Origin: a phage
Length of the DNA stretch: 64,000 nt
Sequence record: PX880101.1
Strand: one strand, 5' to 3'
Shown here: piece after piece, positions 5,277-37,460 of the stretch
Numbering within the stretch: position 1 is the stretch's first letter
Layout: the number at the start of each line of letters is the position of its first letter
Notes under the pieces: generated by a model
Told to the model about the DNA's origin: nothing
Database searches by the model: none
Seen by the model: the letters and a program-made list of their open reading frames with translations, nothing else
Translations under genes and position numbers: made by a program

Positions 5277-5289
5277 TACTTGAAAATTC

Positions 5290-5790: not shown

Positions 5791-5879
5791 TGGGATACTG
5801 TTTTATAGGAAATTGTTACGGAGGGTAATTAGCATGCTAATTAAATTTATTAAATGCGAGGAGTTCTCATTTAGAATTT

Positions 5880-6100: not shown

Positions 6101-6293
6101 GTATATTTTGCCACCTGGCGGGGCCGCTGTCAACACTTTTCAAAAAAAAATTTCTAACCTGATGCGCTGACCGCTGCAACCTGGCGGGGCCAGCCTGGCA
6201 GGGCCTAACTGACCAGGTAGGAGATAATGAAGGCTTGCAAACCTGGTGGGCCTATGCTATAGGATAGGTAACAATTGAAGAGGAGGTACAAAA

Positions 6294-6470: not shown

Positions 6471-6555
6471 TGGTTGACAGCTCGGACAGTTCTTGTTATT
6501 CTTATCCTCGCAAGGTGAACAACACCACACCAATTAACAGAGAGGATAAAAAATC

Positions 6556-6753
6556 ATGAACGCCTACGGAATTAAAGTACGTCGCAACACTCGCCAGGTG
6601 GTCACCAATCAAGTGATTTGCCGGGTGGATGTAACCATCAACAACGGGCAAGGCCTTTATAAATTTCGTCGCGGTCATAGCTATACCCTGCAGCAGCTTA
6701 ACCGTTGCGCCCTGACAAAAGGTCAGATCAACCACTGGTTTAATAAAAAATAA
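6556..6753 (+). CDS. hypothetical small basic protein
   Basis: ORF with agagagg RBS. Confidence 0.5.
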   Translation: MNAYGIKVRRNTRQVVTNQVICRVDVTINNGQGLYKFRRGHSYTLQQLNRCALTKGQINHWFNKK

Positions 6754-6817
6754 ATATTGACACGTAGTCTGACACAAAATATACTTAAATCACAAAAGAC
6801 ACTAAGAGGATAAAATC

Positions 6818-7216
6818 ATGAAAACTACAACCTTTAATTTTGACAATGCCGACTTCTCTTTTTCTGATGTTAAGAATTGCCGCCGTGATCGTGGATTTTA
6901 CAAGGCTTATAATCTGGTTGGCCTAGACGATGATAATAATTTGCACGAAGTAGCGGAGATCCGGTACTATGCCGCCGCCAGCGGTAACACTAACTACTGC
7001 GTTTTTTGGATACACGACAACAAGAATAATAAGTACGGTTATACTGGTGGCAAGGCGAGCGGTCACGGTTATGATAAGGCCAATGCAGCACTTGAGAGCG
7101 CGTTAAATGCTATGGGGATCACTGCCAACGGCTGGATCTATGAAGATGAGTTTTTGTCAGCACTTGCTGCCCACCTGGGGTATAAAAAGCACATTGTGAC
7201 ATGCGCCCACGAATAA
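6818..7216 (+). CDS. hypothetical protein
   Basis: ORF with TTGACA-N17-TATACT promoter and aagagga RBS upstream. Confidence 0.55.
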   Translation: MKTTTFNFDNADFSFSDVKNCRRDRGFYKAYNLVGLDDDNNLHEVAEIRYYAAASGNTNYCVFWIHDNKNNKYGYTGGKASGHGYDKANAALESALNAMGITANGWIYEDEFLSALAAHLGYKKHIVTCAHE

Positions 7217-7226
7217 AAAAAAATTA

Positions 7227-7254
7227 TTGACACGCTGCAAAATTAAAGTAAACT
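7227..7254 (+). promoter_or_regulatory. sigma70-like promoter (TTGACA-N16-TAAACT)
   Basis: Hexamers read directly; followed by leader hairpin and RBS of ORF 7304. Confidence 0.55.
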
Positions 7255-7264
7255 AGACACAAAA

Positions 7265-7283
7265 GGCGGGAATGTTTCCCGCC
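7265..7283 (+). promoter_or_regulatory. 5' leader hairpin GGCGGGAA-tgt-TTCCCGCC (member of a recurring leader-hairpin family)
   Basis: Perfect 8 bp inverted repeat between promoter -10 and RBS. Confidence 0.5.
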
Positions 7284-7303
7284 AACACAAAGGAAAAAAG
7301 ATC

Positions 7304-7699
7304 ATGAATAAGAACGTACGCCGCATCATGAACGAACTGGCAAACGATGAAAAAATTATTGATATGCATTTGGTAAACATTTGCCGCCGTTGTGTAACAT
7401 ATAACAACCGCGCCGCAAAAGCGCGTGAGATGAACGCAAAAGGCACCTTAAAGCCCTTTCAGGTGGTTGTAAAATCTATAACCAGTGCAGCAGACCAGGC
7501 GCATGACCACAACAACGGGAGCACTAATATTGATCCGTCTTACGTAATGAAACGGATCCGGACTTGCAAGAATAAAGAGCAGGTGTATAACGTCATAGAT
7601 TGGTTGGACTCCCTGGGCGATGTGGTTTATAATAGGTTTTCTGCAGCTATCGAGATCCAGCTTGACAGACTGGACGGGAAAGTACTGAAAACTTACTAA
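7304..7699 (+). CDS. hypothetical protein
   Basis: ORF with promoter, leader hairpin and RBS. Confidence 0.55.
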   Translation: MNKNVRRIMNELANDEKIIDMHLVNICRRCVTYNNRAAKAREMNAKGTLKPFQVVVKSITSAADQAHDHNNGSTNIDPSYVMKRIRTCKNKEQVYNVIDWLDSLGDVVYNRFSAAIEIQLDRLDGKVLKTY

Positions 7700-7710
7700 G
7701 TTTATTTTTA

Positions 7711-7734
7711 GATGGCCTTGACGCCAGGGCCATC
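7711..7734 (+). promoter_or_regulatory. 24 bp palindrome GATGGCCTTGACGCCAGGGCCATC overlapping a -35 TTGAC (operator-like), copy 1
   Basis: 10 bp arms (9/10 match) around a 4 bp centre; near-identical 45 bp element repeated at 8330 and 12068. Confidence 0.5.
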
Positions 7735-7778
7735 AATAAAGTAAACTAATCCCAGTTAAGCTAAAAGGAGGCTTGAAG

Positions 7779-7898
7779 ATGAGCACTACACGCCAGCACA
7801 CAAAGGTAACTATTATCGTTTGCATCATTGGTTATATCCTGGCGCAAATGTTGATGGGTAGCGCCAACGGTGTCGCAAAATTTTTCTTAAACTTTTAA
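7779..7898 (+). CDS. small hydrophobic protein (39 aa)
   Basis: Strong aaaaggagg RBS; hand translation MSTTRQHTKVTIIVCIIGYILAQML... Confidence 0.35.
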   Translation: MSTTRQHTKVTIIVCIIGYILAQMLMGSANGVAKFFLNF

Positions 7899-7926
7899 TT
7901 GACAAGCTAACTTAGATCGGTATACT
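7899..7926 (+). promoter_or_regulatory. sigma70-like promoter (TTGACA-N16-TATACT)
   Basis: Consensus hexamers; followed by hairpin gggaa-aac-ttccc and RBS. Confidence 0.6.
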
Positions 7927-7976
7927 AAACACATCAACGGGAAAACTTCCCAGAACACACAAAAGGAGAAAACACC

Positions 7977-8318
7977 ATGACCACTATGACCGCCGCAGAA
8001 AAAGCTATTCAGATCGCTGCCCTGAAAAAACAGATCGCAGACCTTGAGAATAAGATCGATAACTTTGAAATCGACGAGGACAAGTACGACGAAAACTATG
8101 ATGAATGGTTAGACGAGATCTACGGCGAAATTATGATCGGAAACATTTCTTTTCTTCCGTCGCGTATCCTCAAGGAGCTAGATCCTATCGCTTACCGCTG
8201 CGGATTTAGCGACTACATCGACAGCCTGGATATTGAGGACGATGAAGAATACCAGGAATTACAGACAGAGTTGGAAGAAGCAAAAGAAGAGCTTGCGGAG
8301 CTGGAAGAAAACGAGTAA
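7977..8318 (+). CDS. hypothetical acidic coiled-coil protein
   Basis: ORF with aaaaggag RBS; Glu/Asp-rich. Confidence 0.55.
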   Translation: MTTMTAAEKAIQIAALKKQIADLENKIDNFEIDEDKYDENYDEWLDEIYGEIMIGNISFLPSRILKELDPIAYRCGFSDYIDSLDIEDDEEYQELQTELEEAKEELAELEENE

Positions 8319-8329
8319 GATTATTTTTA

Positions 8330-8353
8330 GATGGCCTTGACTCCAGGGCCATC
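8330..8353 (+). promoter_or_regulatory. 24 bp palindrome GATGGCCTTGACTCCAGGGCCATC, copy 2
   Basis: Same element as 7711, including the flanking ttatttttag...aataaagtaaact. Confidence 0.5.
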
Positions 8354-8407
8354 AATAAAGTAAACTTTATACTGTTAACACTGAACTAATGCATAGGAGT
8401 TAAAACC

Positions 8408-8653
8408 ATGGCAGCACTAATCACTAAATATTACGCCCCTACCAACACCAAAAGCGCCCGTATCATGGTAAAAGGCTTCGGACGTAAAAAGGTTTACACC
8501 TGGGATTATGCCTTAGACACGGAAGACAACTACACCAACGCGATGACAGATTTTATTAATGAGCTGAACACGCGGATCTTGACAAATTATAAAATTACCG
8601 ATATTGCCTATATAGGGGAAGGCGGGATCTGTTTTGTCGGTATCGTCAAATAA
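8408..8653 (+). CDS. hypothetical protein
   Basis: ORF with taggag RBS. Confidence 0.5.
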   Translation: MAALITKYYAPTNTKSARIMVKGFGRKKVYTWDYALDTEDNYTNAMTDFINELNTRILTNYKITDIAYIGEGGICFVGIVK

Positions 8654-8666
8654 ACTGTTTTTTCGG

Positions 8667-8688
8667 TGGTCCTGGTAGCAGGGCCATC
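8667..8688 (+). promoter_or_regulatory. divergent palindrome TGGTCCTGgtagCAGGGCCA, related to the GATGGCC element
   Basis: 8 bp inverted repeat, same position relative to the downstream gene. Confidence 0.4.
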
Positions 8689-8729
8689 TATAAAGATAGT
8701 TTATCAATACAATGAAAGGAGAAAGTAAC

Positions 8730-9083
8730 ATGATCAGTGGGGCAAGTTTTATTATTGGCGCTATTGCTACGGCTTTAATTGTAAACAAGATCCAATCTAA
8801 AAACGAAAAAGAGAGCAACGCGCTCACAGAATACCCATTTTGGATATTCAACGACAATGAAGACTACATTATCAAGTACAAGAATGAGAAGGGCGACCAG
8901 GTAACACCGCGACCGATCCCGGCCTACAAGATGCAAGAAACACTATACCGCCTAAAGGCTGGAGGCGCAAAAATCGTAGACTTTTGGGGATATGATTGCA
9001 AGGATCAGGAGGTTATAAAACGGCGTATCCGGGCTATTCAGGCCAATATTGAAGTTAGCAAGGGGGGAATATATGAAGATTAA
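8730..9083 (+). CDS. putative membrane protein
   Basis: ATG after aaaggag RBS; N-terminal hydrophobic segment ISGASFIIGAIATALIV; the earlier ORF-track ATG lies inside the RBS. Confidence 0.5.
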   Translation: MISGASFIIGAIATALIVNKIQSKNEKESNALTEYPFWIFNDNEDYIIKYKNEKGDQVTPRPIPAYKMQETLYRLKAGGAKIVDFWGYDCKDQEVIKRRIRAIQANIEVSKGGIYED

Positions 9084-9270
9084 TTTTGAGAAGATTGTAA
9101 AGCGATCTCATGATTCCGAAGAGCTGCCGGAACGCCGCCAGCGTAACAATAAACTGAATAAGCCAAAAAGATTTGGGAAGATCTGGCGGAATCATTATGA
9201 TCGTAAATTGCCGGGCCTCCTTTTGGAACGTGAACGGCAGGCGGAACGATACCGCCACAAAGGCAACTAA
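9073..9270 (+). CDS. small basic protein
   Basis: Internal ATG with aagggggg RBS; Arg/Lys-rich. Confidence 0.4.
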   Translation: MKINFEKIVKRSHDSEELPERRQRNNKLNKPKRFGKIWRNHYDRKLPGLLLERERQAERYRHKGN

Positions 9271-9277
9271 CAACCAA

Positions 9278-9307
9278 CGCCCCGCCATCGTGCGGGGCTT
9301 TTTATTT
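9278..9307 (+). terminator. intrinsic terminator
   Basis: Hairpin gccccgc-catcg-tgcgggg followed by ctttttatttc. Confidence 0.6.
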
Positions 9308-9510
9308 CTACCCTACGAATAGCGCCCCTGGTTGGCCCTGTAAGCGCCAAAAAGGCCCCACCTATGCAATCGCCCCCTTTAACCTGAAAACATCGCTTAG
9401 GGCCGTTTTATGGCGTTAAAAATATCATTGACAGTGATTTTATTTAAAGCTTGACATCTTAAACAGGTTAGCTATACTAACCACATCAAAGAGAGAAAGG
9501 AGTAAACGCC

Positions 9511-9771
9511 ATGCGTAAATTAAAAAATTTTGATAAAGTTGATGTTGTCCTGAATAATTTTTACTACTGCAACAACAAGGCCATTTGGTGGCGTGATAGT
9601 TCCACCGATAAAGTCAAGGCGCGCTTTCTCCAGGGGCACTGGCAAGGCCGCCCAGTGATTAAAATCATGGGGCAATTGGTAGCGTTTAAAAATTGCCGCC
9701 GTGTTGATGACGTTGAGGAGATTTTAAACATTTTGCGCCACAATAATTTAAAAAATAGTGTTGACAAGTAA
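9511..9771 (+). CDS. hypothetical protein
   Basis: ORF with TTGACA-N16-TATACT promoter and aaaggag RBS. Confidence 0.5.
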   Translation: MRKLKNFDKVDVVLNNFYYCNNKAIWWRDSSTDKVKARFLQGHWQGRPVIKIMGQLVAFKNCRRVDDVEEILNILRHNNLKNSVDK

Positions 9772-9788
9772 ATCTCAATAAGTATAAT
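9761..9788 (+). promoter_or_regulatory. sigma70-like promoter (TTGACA-N16-TATAAT)
   Basis: Consensus hexamers; followed by hairpin ggcgg-gaaaactta-ccgcc (9799-9817). Confidence 0.6.
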
Positions 9789-9845
9789 TAAACACACAGG
9801 CGGGAAAACTTACCGCCACTAACAAAGAAAACAGGAGAAAATATC

Positions 9846-10469
9846 ATGACCACCGTTAACATTACCACAGGTTACAATTTATCTTTCGACGTGCTGACCG
9901 ACGAACAAAAAGAAAAAGCCATTGAAATGGTACGCGAAAGAGAAGAACACAGCGGGGATGACTTTTTTGCAGAAAGTGTAATTGAACACTACAAAGAATA
10001 TATCTTTCCAGAGTACGGCCTTGAAGATACCGAAGTACATTGGTCCGGCTTTTGGTGCCAGGGTGACGGCGCGTCAATCAGTGCTGAAAACGTGGATTTA
10101 GAAAAATTTTTGCGTAAAGTAAAGGCCCTGACCAAGTTCCGATCAATTCGTCACTTGTTCGGCACAATGCACGATGGCGAGTTATCAGCCAGTGTTGAAC
10201 GCGACAAGTACAGCCATTACAGCCATGAAAACACTGTAAGCGGATACATTGATACCACCTGGCTAGATCTGACCGCCAAACAAGAAAACAAAGTGGAAGA
10301 CCTGGAAGAGCTGATCACCGAGACGGTACGGGAGCTATCCCGCAAGGTTTACGTAGACCTGGAGGAGGCCTATCTAGAACAGTTCACTACCGAAAACCTG
10401 ATCGGCCTTATTGAGGCCAATGATTGGCGGTTTGATGTGGATGAATATGGAGAGATGAGTTTTTCATAA
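9846..10469 (+). CDS. hypothetical protein
   Basis: ORF with promoter, leader hairpin and RBS. Confidence 0.55.
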   Translation: MTTVNITTGYNLSFDVLTDEQKEKAIEMVREREEHSGDDFFAESVIEHYKEYIFPEYGLEDTEVHWSGFWCQGDGASISAENVDLEKFLRKVKALTKFRSIRHLFGTMHDGELSASVERDKYSHYSHENTVSGYIDTTWLDLTAKQENKVEDLEELITETVRELSRKVYVDLEEAYLEQFTTENLIGLIEANDWRFDVDEYGEMSFS

Positions 10470-10560
10470 ATAAAGTGTTGCAATAATCTAAAAACCTGCT
10501 ATATTAAAACTCAAGGGGGGGCAAGACGTTTGCCCCACACAAAACAAAGAGGAAAACATT

Positions 10561-10941
10561 ATGAAAAACACTACTAAAGCTATTGACACCGTTATGTTTA
10601 ACCTGGTTACCTTTCGCGAGGATATGAAAGATCTTCCACGTGAAACAGTGTGCGATCACATTGAAAACTATCGCAAACTAATCAAAGAGTTGCCTTTAAA
10701 ACGTGACCAGTATGCGGCTAACGCTATGCTCAACGCCATGATCAAAAAGATGATTCAGTGTGATTTAACCCTGGCCTATGATTATGCAGGTGGTCGTTTT
10801 GCAGTATACAATCAGCCCGTGCCTGGTATGAGCACCACCGAAGAATTGCACGCGTTAAATCTGAAACAAGATGTATGGGATAACATGCCCCGCGTGGTGG
10901 TGTGGGCAGAAAGCGGAAAGATTTACGGCGATAATTTTTAA
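10561..10941 (+). CDS. hypothetical protein
   Basis: ORF with promoter, hairpin gggggcaagacgtttgcccc and aagagga RBS. Confidence 0.55.
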   Translation: MKNTTKAIDTVMFNLVTFREDMKDLPRETVCDHIENYRKLIKELPLKRDQYAANAMLNAMIKKMIQCDLTLAYDYAGGRFAVYNQPVPGMSTTEELHALNLKQDVWDNMPRVVVWAESGKIYGDNF

Positions 10942-10951
10942 TCAGGTAACA

Positions 10952-10978
10952 GGCGGCATATTTGCCGCCTTATTGTTA
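10952..10978 (+). terminator. intrinsic terminator
   Basis: Hairpin ggcggca-tat-ttgccgcc followed by ttattgtt. Confidence 0.5.
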
Positions 10979-11005
10979 AACAGAACTGCAAAAGAGGTAC
11001 ATAGA

Positions 11006-11377
11006 ATGGAATTTATTATTTTGGCTGTAGTAGTTGCCTTGTTCAACGCCTGGATCGCTGGCAAGATAGGTAGATCCGCTTTTCTATGGTTTGTTATATC
11101 TATTTTCCTGGGAGTGGTTGCAACTATTGTATTGGTTATCCTTGCAATTGTTGACAAGGGCGATAATAGAAAGGGTAAAGTGTTTTCCGACCTGTATGAC
11201 GCACAAACGTTTGTCAACGCCTATTATAGTGATCTTCCAGTCTCCCTACGCTGCAGCCTGGCACAACAGGTTTTTGATGAGGCTAAAACCAGAGACCAAG
11301 CCCATGAGATATGTTTAACTGAAGCGGATCGCCTATTTGAGAGGAATAGAAAATATGTGGACCAGCCGTTTAAATAA
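11006..11377 (+). CDS. membrane protein with two predicted TM helices
   Basis: ATG after aaagagg RBS; MEFIILAVVVALFNAWIAG and FLWFVISIFLGVVATIVLVILAIV. Confidence 0.5.
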   Translation: MEFIILAVVVALFNAWIAGKIGRSAFLWFVISIFLGVVATIVLVILAIVDKGDNRKGKVFSDLYDAQTFVNAYYSDLPVSLRCSLAQQVFDEAKTRDQAHEICLTEADRLFERNRKYVDQPFK

Positions 11378-11596
11378 CGCCACGTTAATTAATCCCTTTA
11401 GTGAAGATTTGAAGCCAGCCGCCTGGCGTGACGGATTCAATAACGAACGCTTTATTTTCAGGCCTGATCTTGAGGAATTTTATAACAATGGATCGAACAA
11501 CAGCGGAGATAATTTTTCTTGTGGTGTGCGTGGTGATAGGACTCCTGGGGGCCATTGTAAACCACGTCACTACTAACAGGAGGGAAGGGGGAGACG

Positions 11597-11716
11597 ATGA
11601 CAACCAAGGATAAGCCATGCGCTGATAAGGTGCGCCGTGTTATGGTATGGCTTGAGATTATCGCCCTTGAAATATTGTTAGGCGTAGGGATGTACTTTAT
11701 CGCTGTAAGTAACTAA
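11597..11716 (+). CDS. small membrane protein (39 aa)
   Basis: Strong aggagggaaggggg RBS; hydrophobic C-terminal half; terminator follows. Confidence 0.3.
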   Translation: MTTKDKPCADKVRRVMVWLEIIALEILLGVGMYFIAVSN

Positions 11717-11720
11717 GAGC

Positions 11721-11750
11721 GGCCCCCGATCATGGGGGCCTATCTTTTAA
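11721..11750 (+). terminator. intrinsic terminator
   Basis: Hairpin ggccccc-gatcat-gggggcc followed by tatcttttaaaaaattttt. Confidence 0.6.
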
Positions 11751-11854
11751 AAAATTTTTCTTCCGGGGTGTTGCAATCCGGTCCGGAATGTGGATAATAA
11801 CAATCAACGGGGAGCTAATCCCCACCACCACAAAAACCAGAAAGGAGAAACAAA

Positions 11855-12055
11855 ATGAGCAACAATATCCGCGTTATTAACTTCAAAAAAGAAGAAAAAA
11901 TTGCCGTGCTGATTGACGGTCAAGAAATCTTCAAGGGCGACTATGAAGATCATCAAACGGCGATTAGTATCACTCGCGTGATTGGTTATCATAATTTCTA
12001 CCCCCAAGGCGCTGAGGCAGCAGTTAAACGAATCAAAGAGATTGTAGGCCTGTAA
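11855..12055 (+). CDS. hypothetical small protein
   Basis: ORF with promoter, hairpin cggggagctaatccccacc and aaaggag RBS. Confidence 0.5.
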   Translation: MSNNIRVINFKKEEKIAVLIDGQEIFKGDYEDHQTAISITRVIGYHNFYPQGAEAAVKRIKEIVGL

Positions 12056-12067
12056 AATTTATTTTTA

Positions 12068-12091
12068 GATGGCCTTGACTTCAGGGCCATC
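12068..12091 (+). promoter_or_regulatory. 24 bp palindrome GATGGCCTTGACTTCAGGGCCATC, copy 3
   Basis: Third copy of the 45 bp element. Confidence 0.5.
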
Positions 12092-12148
12092 GATAAAGTA
12101 AATTTAAACCCTGTTAAAATACCACGCAGTTAACAAGGAGTGATAGAC

Positions 12149-12448
12149 ATGTTTATCCAGGCTAATAATCTTTATTTCTTTGATGGTCAGATCGTAGATG
12201 GTGTGGAAGTGGAGATCACCGGGTGCCCTGGCGGTCAGGCTATGACTTTTCGGAATAATGCCTTTGATGATTCTCATATCGTTATGAGAATGGAAGTTAC
12301 GAAGCTGGACGACAAGAAAACACTTATTGACTATTCTGTGAAAGATCATCCAGACTACCGCATGATCCATGGTGATTTGTGCATTGTTGACCGTGACAAG
12401 GTGGGCGGCATTGTGATCGCTATTGTGAACGATGTTTTCTCAAACTAA
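12149..12448 (+). CDS. hypothetical protein
   Basis: ATG 8 nt after aaggag RBS. Confidence 0.5.
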   Translation: MFIQANNLYFFDGQIVDGVEVEITGCPGGQAMTFRNNAFDDSHIVMRMEVTKLDDKKTLIDYSVKDHPDYRMIHGDLCIVDRDKVGGIVIAIVNDVFSN

Positions 12449-12840
12449 TTTCAGCAGGCGATTTTATGAAAGTCAAACTATATTACCTTAATGAGCTTAA
12501 CCCCCTTGCCCAGGTCCGCGCCCTAGCTAATACCTTGATTTGTGAGAAATCTGTATATTGTGTTGAGCTTAACACGTCTCAAAGGTGGTTACTTTGACAT
12601 CCATGCTGCAATCAACGGCCTGAATATGGAATTTATACGCTTACGTAACAGCCGCCGGAATCTGGCAAGAATGGAACAAGATCCGGCCCACCTTCGCAAG
12701 CTGGTTATTGAAAATCATCTGATGTTTAATGCCGAGGGGGATTATTACCATTTTCACCGCAAACGCTGGTACCGTGGCGGCAATACAGGCAAGAATGCAA
12801 AATAAGGCCCCTAGCAGGGCCTGCAGCAATATAATCACAT

Positions 12841-12875
12841 AAAGGCCATGCGGTTGCATGGCCTTTATTATTTTG
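12841..12875 (+). terminator. intrinsic terminator
   Basis: Hairpin aaaggccatgc-ggtt-gcatggccttt followed by attatttt. Confidence 0.6.
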
Positions 12876-13007
12876 GCGTTACAACGGCATACGGGGCGCT
12901 TAAAAAATTTTTAAAGAAGTACTTGCATCATTCCCGACAATATGGATAATAAGAGTTGTCGAGGGGGAGGCCCCCAATCGTTGACCAGATAGATAGGAGT
13001 TAAAATC

Positions 13008-13292
13008 ATGGCTATTGTTACCGCTGGCGATGTAGTAGAAATGGAAGCAAAATACTTAAAAGCGGGTATGCACATCCTACGGAATGATCAAGAGTTATTA
13101 TTAACGATGGTTGACTATAATCACGGCCAGGATTATCCAAGCATCGACTACTTTTTTGAGTATGTTGATGAAGAGTTGAAAGAGGATGAGGCCTATTGCG
13201 GTGAGTTCTGCAACTTCTTTTGTCCTGATGAGGTTGTAAAGGTTATTTATCAACCTGGCGTAGCTTTCCCGCTGCACGCTATCAATAAATAA
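13008..13292 (+). CDS. hypothetical acidic protein
   Basis: ORF with TTGCAT...GATAAT promoter, hairpin gggggaggccccc and taggag RBS. Confidence 0.5.
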   Translation: MAIVTAGDVVEMEAKYLKAGMHILRNDQELLLTMVDYNHGQDYPSIDYFFEYVDEELKEDEAYCGEFCNFFCPDEVVKVIYQPGVAFPLHAINK

Positions 13293-13347
13293 ACCTGGCG
13301 GGGCCGAAAAGGCCCCCAATTATGAAAATAAAGAGAGGCAAATCATC

Positions 13348-13581
13348 ATGATGGAACAAATTAAACGCGCCGAGGCTATTAATGGCAACGTGATCTATTT
13401 TGTCAGCAAAAACGAAAAAGGCGTACCATATGCGGCAGTAATAGTACAACCTGACGGCGATTATTGGTTTACTGTGTACGGCGCTTATTCTTTTGGGCGT
13501 CCAGTGCATGATAAAATTTTGAAAGTAGCGAACCCTACCGGGAAGAATATCACAGCAGAAAAATTTTTTGAAAATAGTTGA
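13348..13581 (+). CDS. hypothetical protein
   Basis: ORF with aaagagagg RBS. Confidence 0.5.
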   Translation: MMEQIKRAEAINGNVIYFVSKNEKGVPYAAVIVQPDGDYWFTVYGAYSFGRPVHDKILKVANPTGKNITAEKFFENS

Positions 13582-13605
13582 CATGACCATATAAGACTGT
13601 AATAT
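13578..13605 (+). promoter_or_regulatory. sigma70-like promoter (TTGACA-N16-TAATAT)
   Basis: Hexamers; followed by hairpin ggggcaacgaacccc and aagagga RBS. Confidence 0.55.
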
Positions 13606-13656
13606 ATAAATCAAAGGGGGCAACGAACCCCACCAACTACAAAGAGGATAAAAATC

Positions 13657-13836
13657 ATGGCTATTATTGCAAAGACTGAGATCGTAGGCTTAGATTCTAT
13701 TCTCCTCGCATATGAGGAAGCTATAGAAATGTATGTGGTTTCCTATGGTGAGTATATCCGTGAATATAAATCTATTGATCTGGCTTTTGAATGTTATATC
13801 CGCCAGGTTAATAAAGCGTACGATGATTATCGTTAA
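13657..13836 (+). CDS. hypothetical small protein (59 aa)
   Basis: ATG after aaagaggataaaaatc; hand translation MAIIAKTEIVGLDSILLAYEEAIEMYVVS... Confidence 0.4.
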   Translation: MAIIAKTEIVGLDSILLAYEEAIEMYVVSYGEYIREYKSIDLAFECYIRQVNKAYDDYR

Positions 13837-13923
13837 AATAGTTTGACAACAGCCATCTTACAAAGCATAATACATAAGGCGGTGGAATGGTCCGCCACCT
13901 GGAACAAAGAAGAGGTAAACACC

Positions 13924-14169
13924 ATGAAAAGCAATAAAGGTTATAACGGTTACAAAAACAAAACTCATTGGAATGTAAGCCTTTGGATTAATAACGATGA
14001 GTCATTGTACCGGTTGGCCCAAGGCTTTATTAACGCCAATGCTAATCGTAATGATGCGGCGCGGGATATGATGCTTTTTCTGGAGCTAACCGGACAAGAT
14101 AAGACCCCGGACGGCTTCAAGTACAGCACTACGGCGATCCGTGCCGCGATGGTTGGAATGAAACACTAA
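13924..14169 (+). CDS. hypothetical protein
   Basis: ATG after aagaagagg RBS, downstream of leader hairpin ggcgg-tggaatggt-ccgcc; the upstream ORF-track start would run through the hairpin. Confidence 0.5.
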   Translation: MKSNKGYNGYKNKTHWNVSLWINNDESLYRLAQGFINANANRNDAARDMMLFLELTGQDKTPDGFKYSTTAIRAAMVGMKH

Positions 14170-14360
14170 AAGCACATAGCTGCCTTACCCTGGGGCTGTG
14201 GTAGCGGCCCCATGAATAAGGTTACTAACAGAAGAGAATAAACACCGTGAAACAGAAATTAATCGATGCAGTGATCTTGGTTATTGCCCTGGGTATTGGC
14301 CTGATTGCAACCATGTCTAATATGATCTTGTCTTCCAACGGTATCTGGTGAGGTTGGCAA

Positions 14361-14576
14361 ATGATCACTAACAAAACAGGCAAAACGGAATTTTTACGCA
14401 ACTTACAGATCGGCAAGCCTGAGATCTGGTACTGCACTAAAACACCGCGTGACGAAATGAAAGACTTCACCGCCACGCTGCAACGGGTAAAGATATCTAT
14501 CACGCAGAAAAAGGCCTTACTAGTGGTGGAAGGGGAGATCCCCCAAACCGTTGTTATAGTTGAGCGTACAGCATAG
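14361..14576 (+). CDS. hypothetical small protein
   Basis: ORF. Confidence 0.4.
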   Translation: MITNKTGKTEFLRNLQIGKPEIWYCTKTPRDEMKDFTATLQRVKISITQKKALLVVEGEIPQTVVIVERTA

Positions 14577-14667
14577 TTTAATTTATACAGATACCTGAAA
14601 ATTAACCAACAAAGCATAAACAGGCGGTTACCGCCGCCTTAAACGTAGCAGAAAGAGGATAGACACA

Positions 14668-14952
14668 ATGAAAAAGATGATCGCAGTGGTTACCCTGGTT
14701 GTTGGACTTAATGCGCCTGTAATGGCTAAAGAGCTGGCAAAAGAGGTTAATCTAACGGATATTCATGCCGTCAATCAAATCGGGGTTACTTATCGCTTAT
14801 GCCTTGCCGCTAAAACTTTTAAGGACGGCACAACAGAGTACTACGGATTCGAGGGTATCCGGTGCGGTGAGCTTGCTCGCGACCTTAAGGAAGATCCAGA
14901 CCTGGAGGAACTGCCCATAACCGTGAACGGGAAAACTTACGTGAACCGTTAA
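14668..14952 (+). CDS. putative secreted or periplasmic small protein
   Basis: Signal-peptide-like MKKMIAVVTLVVGLNAPVMA; aagagga RBS; leader hairpin ggcgg-tta-ccgcc upstream. Confidence 0.5.
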   Translation: MKKMIAVVTLVVGLNAPVMAKELAKEVNLTDIHAVNQIGVTYRLCLAAKTFKDGTTEYYGFEGIRCGELARDLKEDPDLEELPITVNGKTYVNR

Positions 14953-14954
14953 CC

Positions 14955-15089
14955 ATGAGAAAGATAATTATTACCATGGGGATCGTGGCGGCAATGTTGG
15001 CGATCTTTCCCTTTATGGTTAGGTATGTGCTGATTAATGTTGTCCTGGTAGTCAGCGATCTGGTGTTATATATTAACTCATTGTTTTAG
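14955..15089 (+). CDS. small membrane protein (44 aa)
   Basis: ATG overlapping upstream stop; hydrophobic throughout. Confidence 0.3.
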   Translation: MRKIIITMGIVAAMLAIFPFMVRYVLINVVLVVSDLVLYINSLF

Positions 15090-15097
15090 GCGCGATA

Positions 15098-15289
15098 ATG
15101 ACAGCGGAAGAAGTTAAAAAAGTACTGGCGGTACTGCGTTATCATAATCATTGCAAGGTGAAGAATGATCCTGATTATCTTGATTCATCCCTTGAAGAGG
15201 ATACACTACAAGCCATAAGCAACATGCAAGAATTGCTTAAGCGTATGACAGAGAAAAACCGACCGGACTACATAGGGGGTAAAATATGA
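15098..15289 (+). CDS. hypothetical small protein
   Basis: ORF. Confidence 0.4.
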   Translation: MTAEEVKKVLAVLRYHNHCKVKNDPDYLDSSLEEDTLQAISNMQELLKRMTEKNRPDYIGGKI

Positions 15290-15597
15290 TCGCTATTACG
15301 CCAACCGTTTTAGATTGGTATCGGCAACGCATAGCGCCTCCGCTGGCTATCTTCAAAGATGCGGAAGCAAAACAACGCCGGATCTCAATACATGAGATCA
15401 TCAACCTTAACGCTGGAGGCACACCATACCGCCCAGGACCTGGCCGTGAGATGGACAATACATTGGCGATCCTGAAGATACGCCGTAAACGGTCCTCCCT
15501 TACGCTGGATTCATTACACACAATGCAGTCTCCGTTCCAGGTGACTGGGAAACGGATCGCCAGGTCCTGGACAAAGGCCAATGACCGGACCGTATAA
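15286..15597 (+). CDS. hypothetical protein
   Basis: ORF overlapping upstream stop by 4 nt. Confidence 0.4.
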   Translation: MIAITPTVLDWYRQRIAPPLAIFKDAEAKQRRISIHEIINLNAGGTPYRPGPGREMDNTLAILKIRRKRSSLTLDSLHTMQSPFQVTGKRIARSWTKANDRTV

Positions 15598-15651
15598 ATA
15601 AAAAGTGTTTTGGTACTGATTTTGGGGTTGACTTGTTCGGCCCCTTTTGCT

Positions 15652-15707
15652 ATTCTTATTAAACGGGCGGCACTTGGGAACAGGGGGAGACAATCACCAG
15701 GCCTGCC
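15652..15707 (-). repeat. inverted copy of the GGCAGGCC-GGTGATTGTCTCCC element seen at 5913-5958
   Basis: Reverse complement caggcaggcctggtgattgtctccccctgttccc closely matches gggcaggcccggtgattgtctcccggcccctgttgccc. Confidence 0.55.
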
Positions 15708-15816
15708 TGTCATATAAGAACTATAAAAACCGTTGACATCTGCCAGGGGGGTGGGGTAACATTTATCTTGAAGGGGCAAAGGTGCCCACACAACAACCAG
15801 AAGAGAGGAAAACACT

Positions 15817-16089
15817 ATGTCAAGCTGGATTAATCAAGAAGTCGAATCACGTTTTAATGCTATTTGGGATCTCATCGAAAAAGAAGACGGCACATCAAGC
15901 CCCTACCTCAACAATTTGGAATTCCATTTTGTGGAAGCGATGAACGCAGAACATGATCACGAAGGTGGTGCGGACGAGTTCGCTAAAGGGTATGGCTTCA
16001 ATAATGCCAACGAAATGATCGAGGCGGTTGTACTCCAGGCTGAGGAAGATTATCAATTAAAAACGCTTGAATTCTGCCGCCGTAAGTAA
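15817..16089 (+). CDS. hypothetical acidic protein
   Basis: ORF with promoter, hairpin ggggcaaaggtgccc and agagagg RBS. Confidence 0.5.
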   Translation: MSSWINQEVESRFNAIWDLIEKEDGTSSPYLNNLEFHFVEAMNAEHDHEGGADEFAKGYGFNNANEMIEAVVLQAEEDYQLKTLEFCRRK

Positions 16090-16149
16090 TAGGATAATGA
16101 CACGGGCCGGGAGGCCCACTAATCAGAACCACACAAAGAGGTAAACATC

Positions 16150-16413
16150 ATGAAACGTCTTGATCAGCTTAAACTAGTTCAGTACATGGCCTACAAAGTT
16201 CTTGAAGTCCAAAAAGGTAGCAAAAAAGAGGTTTGCGAGAAAGCATATAAGATCTTTACCCGTAAAAAAGATGATTGGATGTTACGCCAGACCAAAAAAG
16301 CCGATATCCTGGGATACCTGGAAGAAGAGATCCGACTTGAAGAACAAGAAGAGATCCGCCGTAGTGAGGCAGATTATCAGGCAGCTTGGGAAAACTGGAT
16401 GAGTAACAAATAA
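16150..16413 (+). CDS. hypothetical protein
   Basis: ORF with hairpin gggccgggaggccc and aaagagg RBS. Confidence 0.5.
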   Translation: MKRLDQLKLVQYMAYKVLEVQKGSKKEVCEKAYKIFTRKKDDWMLRQTKKADILGYLEEEIRLEEQEEIRRSEADYQAAWENWMSNK

Positions 16414-16480
16414 TACAACAAGTTACATGGTCAGGGGCAATAAAGCCCCTTGATCGCATAAAAAATTATGCTATCCTTGG

Positions 16481-16509
16481 TTGACAAGGATCGTCAGTTT
16501 TGCTATATT
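16481..16509 (+). promoter_or_regulatory. sigma70-like promoter (TTGACA-N17-TATATT)
   Basis: Hexamers upstream of ORF 16558. Confidence 0.55.
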
Positions 16510-23504: not shown

Positions 23505-23900
23505 TTACTGAAACAGTGCAGATAAATTACCTTCTGGTGGGAACTTATCTGCCAAAAACGGTGTTAGCACAGTAGCCTTCTGAAGATCTGGGGTCCACTC
23601 GTTGTTCAGAACATCCCAGTAGTACGCAATATTGCTGTGTGGGTGCCGCATTACGAACTTTTTCCCTTCGTAGTCATCTGAAACCTCTACAGAAGAAATA
23701 ACAACAGAATCTTCAAGGGTTTCTTCATAGAAAGATCCACCTTCAAATTTCCAACGAGATGCAAGAGCCCCTGCCTTGAACGCTGCAGATAACGGACTGT
23801 CGGCAAGAACATACATTTCTTGCACTCTGTCGCTGCGATCTTTGCTTCTTACGTTGTATACAGTATCTGAGCTATACTCAACACGGTATAGGCTTACCAT
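23505..23900 (-). CDS. paralog family B protein
   Basis: Shares AFKAGALASRWKFEGG and HPHSNIAYYWDVLNNEWTP with ORF 25712-26110. Confidence 0.5.
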   Translation of the reverse strand: MVSLYRVEYSSDTVYNVRSKDRSDRVQEMYVLADSPLSAAFKAGALASRWKFEGGSFYEETLEDSVVISSVEVSDDYEGKKFVMRHPHSNIAYYWDVLNNEWTPDLQKATVLTPFLADKFPPEGNLSALFQ

Positions 23901-24259
23901 TACCGCACCTCCTCAATAACTTCCACATCTGAACCTACCACAAATGCAAAAGGACAGGTTTCATGAAAGATATCCGGATCGCCGCCAAGCTTGCTAACAA
24001 TTTCTCCACCACTAATAAACACAAGCTCACCGATATTCATCAGATTGCTGAAATAGTACCCATAATGATTAAAGAATGCAGCAGGGTCAGGTAGACTAGT
24101 AGCCTCAAGCACTACATCGGTTGAGGTTACTTTCTTATCATAACCTCTCGCCTTTTGAGATGCAAGATCTGCAGAATCCTCAGGAGACCGGAGATGCACA
24201 GGAATTGTTTCACCAATAAAGCGTACTTTCATATTATCACCCAACAACCATAGCTTCAA
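23900..24259 (-). CDS. hypothetical protein with family A-like C-terminus (VGSDVEVIEEVR)
   Basis: ORF; C-terminal motif shared. Confidence 0.5.
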   Translation of the reverse strand: MKLWLLGDNMKVRFIGETIPVHLRSPEDSADLASQKARGYDKKVTSTDVVLEATSLPDPAAFFNHYGYYFSNLMNIGELVFISGGEIVSKLGGDPDIFHETCPFAFVVGSDVEVIEEVR

Positions 24260-24500
24260 AAGGAGTCATGAACGAATAAACGGCATCATCATCTGCTTCA
24301 GGGAATGCTCCCAAAGACTTCATGTCTGAGCCCTTGACAAATACAAGGTTTTGATCAAAAGCTTCTTGGGGGTCAATCCGATACATATTTCGTAGAATAT
24401 CGCTTACCTCCTCATCAAGAGGTGAGTATGCTGTGCACGTTTTTCCGATCAAGCTTTGAGAATCAGGGTAGCCACCTGAAGTTTTAAAATAAACAATCAT
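24237..24500 (-). CDS. hypothetical protein
   Basis: ORF. Confidence 0.45.
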   Translation of the reverse strand: MIVYFKTSGGYPDSQSLIGKTCTAYSPLDEEVSDILRNMYRIDPQEAFDQNLVFVKGSDMKSLGAFPEADDDAVYSFMTPFEAMVVG

Positions 24501-24861: not shown

Positions 24862-24998
24862 TTAGAGGTCTCCTCAATTATTTGATATTAATAGCCGTAA
24901 CCTAACACATTAACTACAACTGCGATTGCAAACATAATTTCAAAGCATGCAATCTCTACATTTGGGACTAATTTCTTAATCACACCCATTGTAGCACC

Positions 24999-25319
24999 TC
25001 ATTCTCCAAAGTCAATCTTTACTTTGCCTTTCCCCTTACCTTTCTTTCCACCGCATTTAGCCAGCTGACGTGCTGCAACATCTACCATACGGTCAGTTGC
25101 CTCGTAAGCATCACTGCCTTTAGCCTTGGCAATAACTTCTTTTCCAGAATTGTCAAAAATGAACGCCATAACTTCCTGGTGATCATTTTCAACTTTTACA
25201 CTCACACGTGCATAGTTAACAGAGGGATGTAAACGCTCCAGCTTGGACATTTTGCGGGAAATAAAAGATACCATACCTTCTGTGATTTCTACATTGTTGC
25301 CAGTGATTTCAATTTGCAT
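24999..25319 (-). CDS. hpf: ribosome hibernation promoting factor / RaiA-like protein
   Basis: MQIEITGNNVEITEG...KLE...VSVKVE...AKG.DAYEA.D...ARQL closely resembles the E. coli HPF N-terminal signature as recalled from memory; Lys/Gly-rich tail. Confidence 0.65.
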   Translation of the reverse strand: MQIEITGNNVEITEGMVSFISRKMSKLERLHPSVNYARVSVKVENDHQEVMAFIFDNSGKEVIAKAKGSDAYEATDRMVDVAARQLAKCGGKKGKGKGKVKIDFGE

Positions 25320-25403
25320 AACGTGTTCCTTTTAAGGAAGAGGGAATAACTATCTCTCTTTGAAAACAATGATACTAAATCTGAAGCGTTGTGTCAACAG
25401 TTT

Positions 25404-25711: not shown

Positions 25712-26110
25712 TCAGTTTAGCTTTTCTTCAACAACCCCATAACTTGGGGCAGAGTCAAGAGCTTTCTGGTTTAAAAGTGGCGTAGCAGAATCTGCAAACG
25801 GTGTCCAAGTTTTTGTTCTGGCATTCCAGTAATGCTTCACTCTGGAATCTGGATGCACTATAACAAAAACTTTTTCACTTGTCAACACATTAATTTCTTC
25901 TACACCCTTGCTGATAATTTCTCCGTCATAGCCCCCAGTCTGGTATCCTTCGTACCAGGTTCTTGCATAGGCATAGCCAGCCTGCCAGCATGCAGCCTCC
26001 TCCGAGGTGGAGACTACGTAGAAGTCTTTCTCAAATTCCGGAATACGCCCTTGCTTTACGCTCCAAGCTCCGCGAATTTTCATTGTTACTTTGAAAAGCT
26101 TGTTCTTCAT
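25712..26110 (-). CDS. paralog family B protein
   Basis: Shares CWQAGYAYARTWYEGY and HPDSRVKHYWNARTKTWTP with ORF 23505-23900. Confidence 0.5.
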   Translation of the reverse strand: MKNKLFKVTMKIRGAWSVKQGRIPEFEKDFYVVSTSEEAACWQAGYAYARTWYEGYQTGGYDGEIISKGVEEINVLTSEKVFVIVHPDSRVKHYWNARTKTWTPFADSATPLLNQKALDSAPSYGVVEEKLN

Positions 26111-26111: not shown

Positions 26112-26366
26112 CTACCGCTCTACAATCTCTACGTCTGTTCCTACACCGAAGGCATAGTAATGTTCTTCCCCAAAGTAATACTTGGGGACACCCGCTTTGA
26201 TCAGATCTAACCCGCGAATAAATACCACACCGTGTGATACAGTGGAATGCTTCTGACGCACAGGATCGTTGTCAGGCAACCATTCAAAGTACACCGCAGG
26301 TACAACCTTTCCCTTCAGGAAGGATTGTCCCAAGTAGACGTTAGAATCAAGAATTTTAACCTTCAT
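26112..26366 (-). CDS. paralog family A small acidic protein
   Basis: MKVKILDSNVYLGQ...GTDVEIVER. Confidence 0.55.
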   Translation of the reverse strand: MKVKILDSNVYLGQSFLKGKVVPAVYFEWLPDNDPVRQKHSTVSHGVVFIRGLDLIKAGVPKYYFGEEHYYAFGVGTDVEIVER

Positions 26367-26583
26367 TCTCGTCCTCCACTATCTCTACATCCTCACCAAG
26401 GGCAAAGTTGTAGGTCCACTGGCTGTCAAAGCAGTCCTGAGATGCACCAGCGGCAATAAGATCTGCACCTTTTATTTTTAAAAGGTCAGGATAATCTTCG
26501 TTAGGGATAGCGGTAAACACTTTCCCCACTAAGGGCTCCTGACCAATATAGAAGCTTGAATCTAAAACTTTAACTTTCATCAA
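26356..26583 (-). CDS. paralog family A small acidic protein
   Basis: MMKVKVLDSSFYIGQ...GEDVEIVEDENEG; tandem with 26112-26366. Confidence 0.55.
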   Translation of the reverse strand: MMKVKVLDSSFYIGQEPLVGKVFTAIPNEDYPDLLKIKGADLIAAGASQDCFDSQWTYNFALGEDVEIVEDENEG

Positions 26584-35336: not shown

Positions 35337-37460
35337 TCAGCAACCACAACTTCCGTAGTGCTTAACTCGCTCGATAACTTCCGCTTGCTTACCTTTATTG
35401 TAAGGACGGGAGTTAGGACTGGAAAGGTATCCAGACACACGTCGAATTACACTGATCGTTCCCTCTTCATGGTTTCCACACTCTGGGCATACAAAGCCTT
35501 TAGCTGTTGCACTGAACTCACCAGAGAAACCACACTTGAGACATTTATCCACAGGTTGGTTAATACCAAAATACATAATGTGTTTATACCCGAAGTCAAC
35601 AAGAGCCTCTAAAGCATCCAGGTTGTTTTTCAGGTTAGGTGTTTCTACGTATCCGATGTTGCCACCAGAGGAGATCATAGCAAAACCTTCCTCATACTCC
35701 CACTTATCAAAAGGAGAGCTATTTATCCATACTGGCTGATGGAAACTGTTGGTGAGATATTCATGCTCGTGCTTCAACACTTCCGGATATTCACGATCCA
35801 GACAGGTTGCAGCTTTATAGCATAGACTCTCAGAAGGAGTGCCGTACAAGCTAAATGCTAGTCTACTTTCCTTCTTGTATCGCTCACAAGCATCTCTCAT
35901 GTGCTGAAGGATTCCAAGAGCTAAAGCCTTGTCACCCTCTCTGCCCAAAATCTGACAGGTTTCATACACACCGATATACCCAATACTGATGGAAGCGTAC
36001 CCGTCATAGAAGAGTTTATCAATACTCTCTTCAGGATCCAGGCGAGCAAGAGCGCCTTCACACCACATGATGGGGTTCTGCCCTGCCTTTGTTCCTTTTA
36101 GACGATTAACCCTTACAAGGTGAGCCTCGTATGCAAGATCCAAGTATTCGTCAAGAACTGCAAAGAAATCAACACCTTCCGTCTTGGCTTTTGCCGCAAT
36201 CATTGGCAGGTTAAGGCTAACAACGCCTAAGTTAAATCTGCCAAGGTATTTCTCCTCGCCTGTTTCCAAGTCATTGTATTTGCTAAGAAAACTCCTGCAA
36301 CCCATGCTAGTTACTTTGCCATCTGTCGAGCCTGTCACTTTTCTATTTAGTGGTACAGATACGAAGTCAGGATAGATACGTTCTGCACAGCATTCCAGAG
36401 CTAATCGTTTCAAATCATAGTTAGGATCCCCAGGGTTCATGTTGACACCCTCTTCCAGGAAGAACAGCACTTTAGGGAACACAGGTGTGATACGTTCTTC
36501 ACCAAGACCCATTTTGTGGACTTTCAGGTAGTTTTTGGTAATCATTCTACCAAAGACCGAGGTATCCAGTCCTAAACTCAATGTGATGAATGGAGTTTGC
36601 CCGTTGACAGAAGTTAACGTGTTGATTTGATAGAGCAAAGTCTGCATGCTGTCAAATACGTCTTTATCTGTCATTTGCATTGCAACAGTTTCAGCATCCG
36701 GCAACCAATGTTCCTGGCAAAATTTAAGGTTCTTCTCATAGGTTGCTTCAGCATACTGTGCCAGATAATGATCAATATGGCTCATAGTCTGACCACCATA
36801 TTGAGCACTAGCTACCGCACTAGAGATTTGGCTAAGGATTGTTGTTGCAACCCCTATTGACTTCGGCTTACTGACATAGGCGTTACCAATGTTGAATCCG
36901 TTTTCCAACATATCTGGATAATTTACCAAACAACAGTTTGTTAACGGACTGATCAAGTAGTCAAGATCATGCACATGGATGAATCCTTTATTGTGCTCTT
37001 CGGAGACACGGTCTGGCAGGATCTGTGTTGATGCAAGGTGTTTGCTAAGAATACCTGCAAGCAGGTCGCGATGAGTGTGTACATGATTAGTAGGCTTATT
37101 TGCGTTTTCTTTTGTAAATTCATCACAAGTTCGATCCAAGAAGCCACTAATATCTGCAAGCAGTTTTCCACCTGCCTCTCTGTTATTATCTCTTGTCTGT
37201 CTATACTGGATGTATTCTCTGGCTGCACATTTTAAACCCATATCCATAAGAGCATCTTCAACAAGGATATGGATATTTTTTACAGAGATCGTGCACTGGT
37301 CGGTTGGTAGATTGTTAGCAACAACTTCATTAACCGCGCAGGCGATCCGGTAAGCTTCTTCTTCAGTATGTCCAGACTCAAGTAAGGCGGACTCTGCCGC
37401 CTTGATCACCTTAATTCCGTTATAGAACTCTTCTCTACCGTCCCGTTTTACAACTTTCAC
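35337..37460 (-). CDS. nrdD: anaerobic ribonucleoside-triphosphate reductase (class III)
   Basis: C-terminal glycyl-radical motif RRVSGYL, zinc ribbon CLKCG...CPECG, N-terminal ATP-cone, 707 aa. Confidence 0.9.
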   Translation of the reverse strand: MKVVKRDGREEFYNGIKVIKAAESALLESGHTEEEAYRIACAVNEVVANNLPTDQCTISVKNIHILVEDALMDMGLKCAAREYIQYRQTRDNNREAGGKLLADISGFLDRTCDEFTKENANKPTNHVHTHRDLLAGILSKHLASTQILPDRVSEEHNKGFIHVHDLDYLISPLTNCCLVNYPDMLENGFNIGNAYVSKPKSIGVATTILSQISSAVASAQYGGQTMSHIDHYLAQYAEATYEKNLKFCQEHWLPDAETVAMQMTDKDVFDSMQTLLYQINTLTSVNGQTPFITLSLGLDTSVFGRMITKNYLKVHKMGLGEERITPVFPKVLFFLEEGVNMNPGDPNYDLKRLALECCAERIYPDFVSVPLNRKVTGSTDGKVTSMGCRSFLSKYNDLETGEEKYLGRFNLGVVSLNLPMIAAKAKTEGVDFFAVLDEYLDLAYEAHLVRVNRLKGTKAGQNPIMWCEGALARLDPEESIDKLFYDGYASISIGYIGVYETCQILGREGDKALALGILQHMRDACERYKKESRLAFSLYGTPSESLCYKAATCLDREYPEVLKHEHEYLTNSFHQPVWINSSPFDKWEYEEGFAMISSGGNIGYVETPNLKNNLDALEALVDFGYKHIMYFGINQPVDKCLKCGFSGEFSATAKGFVCPECGNHEEGTISVIRRVSGYLSSPNSRPYNKGKQAEVIERVKHYGSCGC

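Follow-up and report, generated by a model that had tools for sequence, protein, structure and literature searches.

A short-HPF-type protein encoded by an rV5-like Escherichia coli phage: a selected polybasic tail, altered rRNA-contact positions and a possible role in ribosome preservation

The window, the whole 64,000-nucleotide stretch of phage DNA analyzed here (sequence record PX880101.1), is, on the evidence of its nucleotide identities, the genome of a Vequintavirus (rV5-like) phage of E. coli, and it encodes a 106-residue protein that, by profile and predicted-fold criteria, is a member of the HPF/YfiA family of ribosome hibernation factors. The best explanation of this gene (hereafter hpf), to which we give a probability of roughly one half, is that its product is a functional HPF-family protein that would park idle ribosomes and thereby preserve them for use by the phage. 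Genes of the rV5 type are already known: annotations of hpf date back to 2006, and a paper of 2019 described the gene and probed its product by experiment, so that its existence, homology and distribution are on record. What the present analysis adds is evidence of selection that includes the tail, the loss of the residues equivalent to K80 and K89 in two phage lineages, the gene's own promoter, an orthologue in a divergent lineage, and a search of phage records in which no RMF was found. These additions provide a concrete basis for a low-salt retest of ribosome binding, and the shared loss of lysines, together with the selected polybasic tail, makes the choice between hibernation and anti-hibernation directly testable.

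Results

The hpf gene and its close relatives

The gene is a minus-strand ORF with an ATG start that fills positions 24999-25319 exactly, with 106 codons and the TGA stop included (Table 1). Its product (MQIEITGNNVEITEGMVSFISRKMSKLERLHPSVNYARVSVKVENDHQEVMAFIFDNSGKEVIAKAKGSDAYEATDRMVDVAARQLAKCGGKKGKGKGKVKIDFGE) reads MQIEITGNNVEITEG...VKVE...ARQLAKCGGKKGKGKGKVKIDFGE, as quoted in the preliminary description of this DNA; the gene reported there is thus a real ORF with the quoted sequence, and its strand, previously unstated, is minus. The plus-strand reading of the same interval gives a meaningless translation and contains no ORF.

Table 1. Positions in the window of hpf, the parts of its product and its upstream signals
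Feature	Position	Strand	Basis
hpf-like coding sequence	24999..25319	-	Orthologue of rV5 ORF144 / ABI79209; Pfam, NCBIfam and PDB matches
HPF-like core, residues 1-90	25050..25319	-	Pfam match to residues 3-89; AF2 model; Foldseek
Lys/Gly tail, residues 91-106 (GKKGKGKGKVKIDFGE), with stop	24999..25049	-	pLDDT <50 for residues 91-104
Sigma70-type promoter, TTGACA, 17 nt, TATCAT	25369..25397	-	Consensus scan, 11/12; rV5 P144
Shine-Dalgarno-like AAGGAA, 6 nt upstream of ATG	25326..25331	-	Read from the sequence

The 2.5 kb around hpf are 99.7-99.9% identical to the corresponding region of Escherichia phages ECO111 5-P, rV5_ev146, naswa and magaca and 90-96% identical to that of about 115 other Vequintavirus records, and tblastn recovers the protein, at 93-100% identity, in 119 phage records (119 of about 121 related ones). 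In rV5 itself (DQ832317), the gene bears the name ORF144 (ABI79209) and is immediately preceded by an annotated sigma70 promoter, P144. ORF144 and hpf of the window are one and the same gene: they share their genomic position and promoter, and the proteins are 97% identical; the window allele has one additional Asn (106 aa against 105 aa) and two substitutions, which leave the interpretation unaffected. At codons 8-9 (25293-25298), the window reads GNNVEITEG, with the same loop as E. coli HPF, whereas rV5 and most of its relatives read GNVEITEG, a 3-nt indel that falls in the beta1-alpha1 loop, a 16S rRNA contact in some species.

In the related records, the gene is annotated variously as 'sigma 54 modulation factor', 'ribosome hibernation promoting factor', 'RaiA' or 'ribosome hibernation factor'. 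A few Vequintavirus records (OR062525, OR062530, MT884008-11) label it as a type I 'ATP-dependent protease La', which is an annotation error. Eighteen records of 'Campylobacter phage' (MG0656xx) share about 96% identity with this region of an E. coli phage, which points to a probable error in the host label or to contamination of the isolates. After the experimental study of 2019, hpf was mentioned again in rV5 isolates (Mathieu et al. 2020; PMC6969025), and in the literature searched we found no functional follow-up of rV5 HPF after 2019.

Family membership and predicted fold

The homology to HPF/RaiA that had been proposed from the letters of the sequence is borne out at every level of comparison that we used. 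The Pfam search suggested at that stage returned a significant match of PF02482 (Ribosomal_S30AE) to residues 3-89 (E 4.2e-15; 56.7 bits, with a gathering cutoff of 23.7), and the HPF/YfiA family model TIGR00741 scores 56.8 bits against a cutoff of 40.9. Among the NCBIfam models, the HPF equivalog NF007780 ranks first, with 65.2 bits, below its cutoff of 125, and the RaiA equivalog NF007654 gives 22.8 bits against a cutoff of 158. The top matches among PDB sequences are E. coli HPF (2rql, 4v8h, 6h4n; E ~4e-15) and Vibrio cholerae HPF, with the YfiA chains ranking far behind. The identity to E. coli HPF is 42-44% over 88 residues (residues 1-88; tblastn and PDB alignments), and that to YfiA is about 21-25% (tblastn and structure alignment); the HPF query used for tblastn agrees with the PDB alignment and is 94.7% identical to an annotated Salmonella protein.

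The AF2 model of the phage protein predicts the HPF topology (pLDDT 85, pTM 0.74; core pLDDT 85-96), with the core elements E2-8, H14-30, E34-44, E47-56, E61-68 and H71-90. In Foldseek comparisons, this model aligns with V. cholerae HPF (4hei_A) at a TM of 0.94 normalized to the target and with ribosome-bound E. coli HPF (6h4n_x) at an rmsd of 1.1 A and 43% identity, and all 35 PDB matches at E <=1e-3 are hibernation factors. A likeness to the T7 dGTPase inhibitor Gp1.2 and to the dsRBD (E >=2e-3, TM ~0.5) was treated as generic alpha/beta similarity. The 106-aa protein contains a single Pfam domain and lacks the C-terminal dimerization domain of long HPF.

From the profile scores, PDB matches, identities and Foldseek results, we conclude that the protein is a short-HPF-type member of the family. 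It is descended from a short HPF and yet falls below the HPF equivalog cutoff and differs in contact residues and tail, and it is neither a YfiA/RaiA orthologue nor a long HPF. The close resemblance to 'HPF/YfiA' that was first noted therefore stands for short HPF, YfiA/RaiA being only distantly similar, and its extent was understated: not the N-terminal two-thirds but residues 1-90, about 85% of the protein, are HPF-like. Given the low identity to YfiA and the low RaiA equivalog score, the RefSeq name 'RaiA' is to be read as a family-level name and not as a statement of orthology. The 'sigma 54 modulation' label is presumably historical, reflecting that hpf lies in the rpoN operon, and nothing in our analysis suggests a sigma54 role for the phage protein.

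Distribution and origin

The search for relatives outside the genus points to a gene that has long been resident in phages. A word-indexed protein search returned only five clusters, all from phages, and a scan of IMG/VR only two loci. With phmmer, 141 of 1.84 billion representatives matched at E <=1e-3, and the only match below 1e-10 is an orthologue from a sister lineage (P0004; 103 aa, 64-66% identical to the window protein), the gene for which occupies the same position, in the small-gene block, on 44-137 kb contigs of a divergent, uncultured rV5-like lineage. The closest cellular representative is only 44% identical to the phage protein. The second-ranked non-phage match (P0007; 1160 aa, eight stretches) is a repeat protein; its score adds up across the repeats, and it was discarded as a false positive.

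A blastn search of 5,426 complete E. coli genomes found no nucleotide source of hpf, and the GC content of the gene (41.4%) and its GC3 (35.5%) are the same as those of its phage neighbors; together, these two observations rule out a recent capture from E. coli. Combined with the divergent orthologue in the same position and the limited identity to the closest cellular protein, they indicate that the capture is old and that the gene is fully integrated. In a published phylogeny, the rV5-group HPFs, which are listed among virus-encoded ribosomal proteins, fall among gammaproteobacterial HPFs (Mizuno et al. 2019, Nat Commun 10:752; PMC6375957). Probably, the ancestor of the rV5-like phages acquired a gammaproteobacterial short HPF in the distant past, and the gene was subsequently kept under strong selection. 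When E. coli HPF was used as a tblastn query for independent phage HPFs, the matches beyond Vequintavirus were mostly on contigs of 3-15 kb, which are suspected of bacterial contamination.

Altered rRNA-contact positions

The rRNA-contacting positions were compared using an alignment (A1), 73 homologues and a published list of contacts drawn from cryo-EM structures of Gram-negative HPF-ribosome complexes (bioRxiv 10.1101/2025.10.07.680626). The conserved basic surface that contacts 16S rRNA comprises, in E. coli numbering, K23, K26, K80, R83, K87, K89 and K91, along with D75. The phage protein keeps K23, K26, R29, E44, E61 (=E60), D76 (=D75), R84 (=R83), K88 (=K87) and K92 (=K91), as well as the near-invariant D70, Y72, D76 and Q85. 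K80, a lysine in 62 of the 73 homologues, is V in the window protein (V or T across the two phage lineages), and K89, a lysine in 60 of the 73, is G (G or S across the two lineages); furthermore, T53 is replaced by F (F or R across the two lineages), H55 by F, and the aromatic residue or His at position 30 by L. Because the same positions are changed in the sister-lineage orthologue, these replacements appear to be shared, selected differences rather than decay. Read from the alignment, this divergence at contact positions could mean weakened or altered binding to the ribosome.

Selection on the gene and its tail

Within the genus, the Nei-Gojobori dN/dS of hpf is 0.049 against rV5 and 0.047 and 0.034 against two further relatives (L005 and L006, respectively), or about 0.03-0.06 overall; between the window and L006, there are 31 synonymous and 6 non-synonymous differences. 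Against the divergent L002 lineage, dS is saturated and dN is 0.30. Judging from these substitution patterns, purifying selection on hpf is strong, and it extends to the tail, where the window and L006 differ by 6 synonymous changes, 1 non-synonymous (V-to-G) change and 1 codon deletion. Given that synonymous changes outnumber non-synonymous ones in this comparison, the K/G pattern of the tail seems to be kept at the protein level.

In the window protein, the tail consists of a polybasic Lys/Gly run followed by a hydrophobic-acidic tip, and residues 91-104 are predicted to be disordered (pLDDT <50). The tail of the sister-lineage orthologue (YSKSKGIDKRTAKWDY, ending ...KWDY) has another sequence of similar length that is still net positive and, like that of the window protein, ends in a hydrophobic-Asp-aromatic pattern. 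The Lys/Gly-rich tail had been described as unusual, and so it is in composition: it contains 6 Gly and 6 Lys in a KG repeat, and no such repeat was detected in any of the 73 sampled cellular homologues. In length, on the other hand, it is ordinary, with 18 residues after K88 against a family median of 17; past the equivalent of K88, about 6 residues follow in E. coli HPF and about 23 in YfiA. The tail of YfiA runs toward the RMF site and is held to block the binding of RMF.

Promoter and genomic neighborhood

The -10 hexamer of the hpf promoter, TATCAT, ends about 50 nt upstream of the ATG, and the context of the -35 element, AACTGTTGACACA, is also preserved in front of the 64%-identical orthologue of the divergent lineage (L002/L004). 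Near-consensus sigma70 sites (>=11/12) number 20 in the window, compared to about 2 in shuffled sequences, and all are co-oriented with the local genes. They lie on the plus strand at 3902-16481 and 56720-59853 and on the minus strand at 19371-51858, with a switch of orientation at ~16.5-19.4 kb; an extended -35 context, CTGTTGACA, occurs 5 times in the window, against 0.7 expected.

In the annotated genome of phage MaxBurger, hpf is located inside a long co-directional block in which nucleotide-metabolism genes come first and about 35 small hypothetical genes follow; the first genes of the block are nrdAB, nrdDG and those for a glutaredoxin, a PhoH-like protein, a ClpP-like protein and a methyltransferase. 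The ten nearest neighbors of hpf all belong to PHROGs without an assigned function. Together, the promoter and this context suggest that hpf is transcribed by the host polymerase, probably early, and they make the initial placement of the gene among early genes plausible. No RNA motif, raiA-type or other, was found near hpf, and Rfam at the gathering threshold returned only tRNAs in the window. A hairpin in the 5' UTR (AGAGGG...CCCTCT) can be seen in rV5, but it has only an imperfect counterpart in the window and none in the L002 lineage, and it was set aside as a candidate element.

Several other features of the region deserve to be recorded. A minus-strand ORF at 24888-24989, which starts 9 nt past the hpf stop, encodes a strongly hydrophobic product of 33 aa (MGVIKKLVPNVEIACFEIMFAIAVVVNVLGYGY); it corresponds to rV5 ORF145 and constitutes a separate PHROG, 15151, and the divergent L002-L004 lineage has no called gene at the matching location. 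Paralogous small genes on the minus strand flank hpf, namely, two copies of a ~131 aa family (phrog_7379; 23505-23900 and 25712-26110) and three copies of an ~80 aa family (phrog_5009; 24237-24500, 26112-26366 and 26356-26583), and several of the small flanking proteins end in a similar acidic '...DVEIVE' motif, a pattern which suggests that a module of small genes was duplicated locally, to either side of hpf. Farther away, at 60345-61157 (plus strand), there are seven tRNA genes, those for Arg-TCT, Tyr-GTA, Ser-TGA, Thr-TGT, Met-CAT and Pro-TGG and an odd, 99-nt tRNA-like gene (60814-60912), to which ARAGORN assigns an 8-nt anticodon loop with the 4-base anticodon 'atcc' and a long variable arm, and which scores 35.5 bits with the Rfam tRNA model, just above the threshold. 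The ORF for an nrdD-like anaerobic ribonucleotide reductase (35337-37460, minus strand; 707 aa) is uninterrupted in the window, whereas the nrdD-like gene of MaxBurger (L007, 3116-5823) is annotated as two joined segments flanking a putative homing-endonuclease gene, which indicates that this insertion is variably present within the genus.

Discussion

Ribosome preservation as the favored reading

In the favored reading, the product of hpf is a ribosome-preserving factor, and the host sigma70 RNA polymerase would transcribe the gene from its own promoter, which would make it independent of the starvation signals that control the host hpf, raiA and rmf genes. [quoted passage not shown] Idle ribosomes would then be parked as protected 70S particles. 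According to published reports, hibernation factors keep rRNA and ribosomal proteins from being degraded (PMC7764885; PMC12320835), and the likely benefit to the phage would be that ribosomes stay intact and reusable in a starved or slow-growing infected cell that is unable to make its own hibernation factors. A role in ribosome preservation that is uncoupled from host starvation signaling, following the logic of auxiliary genes, is in our assessment the most parsimonious one, with about even chances of being correct.

RMF, HPF and YfiA are routinely removed from ribosomes by high-salt washing. This matters for the ribosome-association test on gradients that had been proposed for the phage protein, which in essence was already performed by Mizuno et al. 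(PMC6375957). Expressed from pBAD24 in E. coli NM522, rV5 HPF was detected by mass spectrometry in the crude extract and was absent from the 70S and 100S fractions of sucrose gradients, and the formation of 100S particles was unchanged; the cells were harvested at OD600 = 1, in late-exponential phase, the cushion through which the ribosomes were pelleted contained 1.1 M sucrose and 500 mM NH4Cl, and the authors name growth phase, salt stripping or a genuine loss of binding as possible causes (PMC6375957). This result counts against ribosome preservation, as do the divergence at the contact positions and the HPF equivalog score of 65 against 125. However, given the salt in the cushion and the stage of harvest, it is a weak negative.

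Competition with host hibernation

The main rival to ribosome preservation is that the protein counteracts hibernation, a possibility that we take seriously although we consider it unlikely. Here, weak or transient occupancy of the HPF/YfiA site, combined with a tail that blocks RMF, would prevent the formation of 100S particles driven by RMF and HPF, so that ribosomes would remain available for phage mRNAs. A version of this scenario was put forward by Mizuno et al., who proposed that viral HPF might compete with its cellular homologues and prevent ribosome dimers (PMC6375957), and several of our observations are compatible with it. The tail, with 16 residues past helix 2, against about 6 in E. 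coli HPF, is nearer to that of YfiA, which inhibits RMF binding, but it is basic and glycine-rich, unlike the acidic end of YfiA, and its sequence differs in the sister lineage. Binding that is weaker and more reversible would accord with the replacement of two near-invariant lysines of helix 2 in both phage lineages and with the failure to find the protein on salt-washed ribosomes, although the small 100S peak was not visibly changed upon expression in E. coli (PMC6375957). We found no RMF homologue in 50,697 phage records or in the window, which implies that the phage does not bring a 100S partner of its own, but this search had no positive control. More doubtful is the possibility that the rV5-type protein, with two near-invariant lysines lost and a flexible polybasic tail gained, is no conventional hibernation factor but a derived one that would bind loosely in the channel and serve anti-hibernation or the shielding of the ribosome, its tail blocking either RMF or host nucleases and toxins directed at the A site. 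If this were the case, the ribosomes of stressed hosts would be spared both dimerization and damage and could be put back to work on phage mRNAs at once.

Shut-off and repurposing

The two other readings are less likely still. Shut-off of host translation, whereby an early, excess protein would block the A and P sites of free 30S and 70S particles and lower initiation on host mRNAs, would agree with a sigma70 promoter that is strong and of the constitutive type, with the location of hpf among small takeover-type genes and with the occupation of tRNA and mRNA sites by HPF and YfiA. We nevertheless regard it as improbable: no feature would spare the phage mRNAs, which depend on the same ribosomes as those of the host, the changes in the binding surface look like a weakening and not a strengthening, and E. 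coli tolerated expression from pBAD both during the overnight pre-culture and up to OD600 = 1, with normal ribosome profiles (PMC6375957). Repurposing of the dsRBD-like HPF fold for a job off the ribosome, such as the binding of another RNA, a host protein or a nucleotide signal, is just as improbable, given the clear sequence homology to HPF (44% identity), the retention of most of the basic patch of helices 1 and 2 and of the near-invariant residues, the exclusively hibernation-factor matches of the fold, and a negative binding result that the high-salt wash may explain; what speaks for it is that very failure to detect ribosome association (PMC6375957), the loss of several contact residues in both lineages despite strong selection, and the precedent of the SPO1 anti-CBASS sponge Acb4, which has a fold like that of V. 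cholerae HPF (bioRxiv 10.1101/2024.12.30.630793), so that an Acb4-type sponge is kept only as a low-probability rival.

The roles first suggested for the protein, shutting down or protecting host ribosomes or stabilizing them for phage translation, are thus far speculative. Phage-encoded translation factors illustrate viral tuning of the host ribosome.

Comparison with known hibernation factors

Among the known systems, the short HPFs of gammaproteobacteria (E. coli YhbH/HPF, 2rql, 6h4n and 6y69; V. cholerae HPF, 4hei) have the same fold as predicted for the phage protein and, in part, the same basic rRNA-contacting surface. The phage protein differs from them in the replacement of K80, K89, T53, H55 and the aromatic residue at position 30, as well as in its Gly/Lys-rich tail, which is 10-11 residues longer, and the phage gene is under a sigma70 phage promoter instead of being part of the rpoN operon, with no phage-encoded RMF partner. 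With YfiA/RaiA (protein Y) of E. coli, the phage protein has in common the family, the fold and a C-terminal extension of similar length past helix 2, but its tail is a polybasic Gly/Lys sequence, whereas that of YfiA ends in an acidic stretch. The long HPFs of Firmicutes and other bacteria have the N-terminal S30AE fold in common with the phage protein; lacking the C-terminal dimerization domain and consisting of a single Pfam domain, the latter cannot dimerize ribosomes by the long-HPF route.

The HPF fold is also encoded by jumbo phages, in the S30AE proteins of Cronobacter phage GAP32 (K4F6Q6) and Escherichia phage PBECO4 (L7TII8), which belong to phrog_8990, whereas the rV5 group forms its own PHROG, 12469. 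In structure alignments, the jumbo-phage proteins are only 18-26% identical to those of the rV5 type, and they are missed by tblastn at 1e-5; they thus represent separate lineages. The low identity and the separate PHROGs indicate that the jumbo phages and the rV5-like phages acquired their S30AE genes independently.
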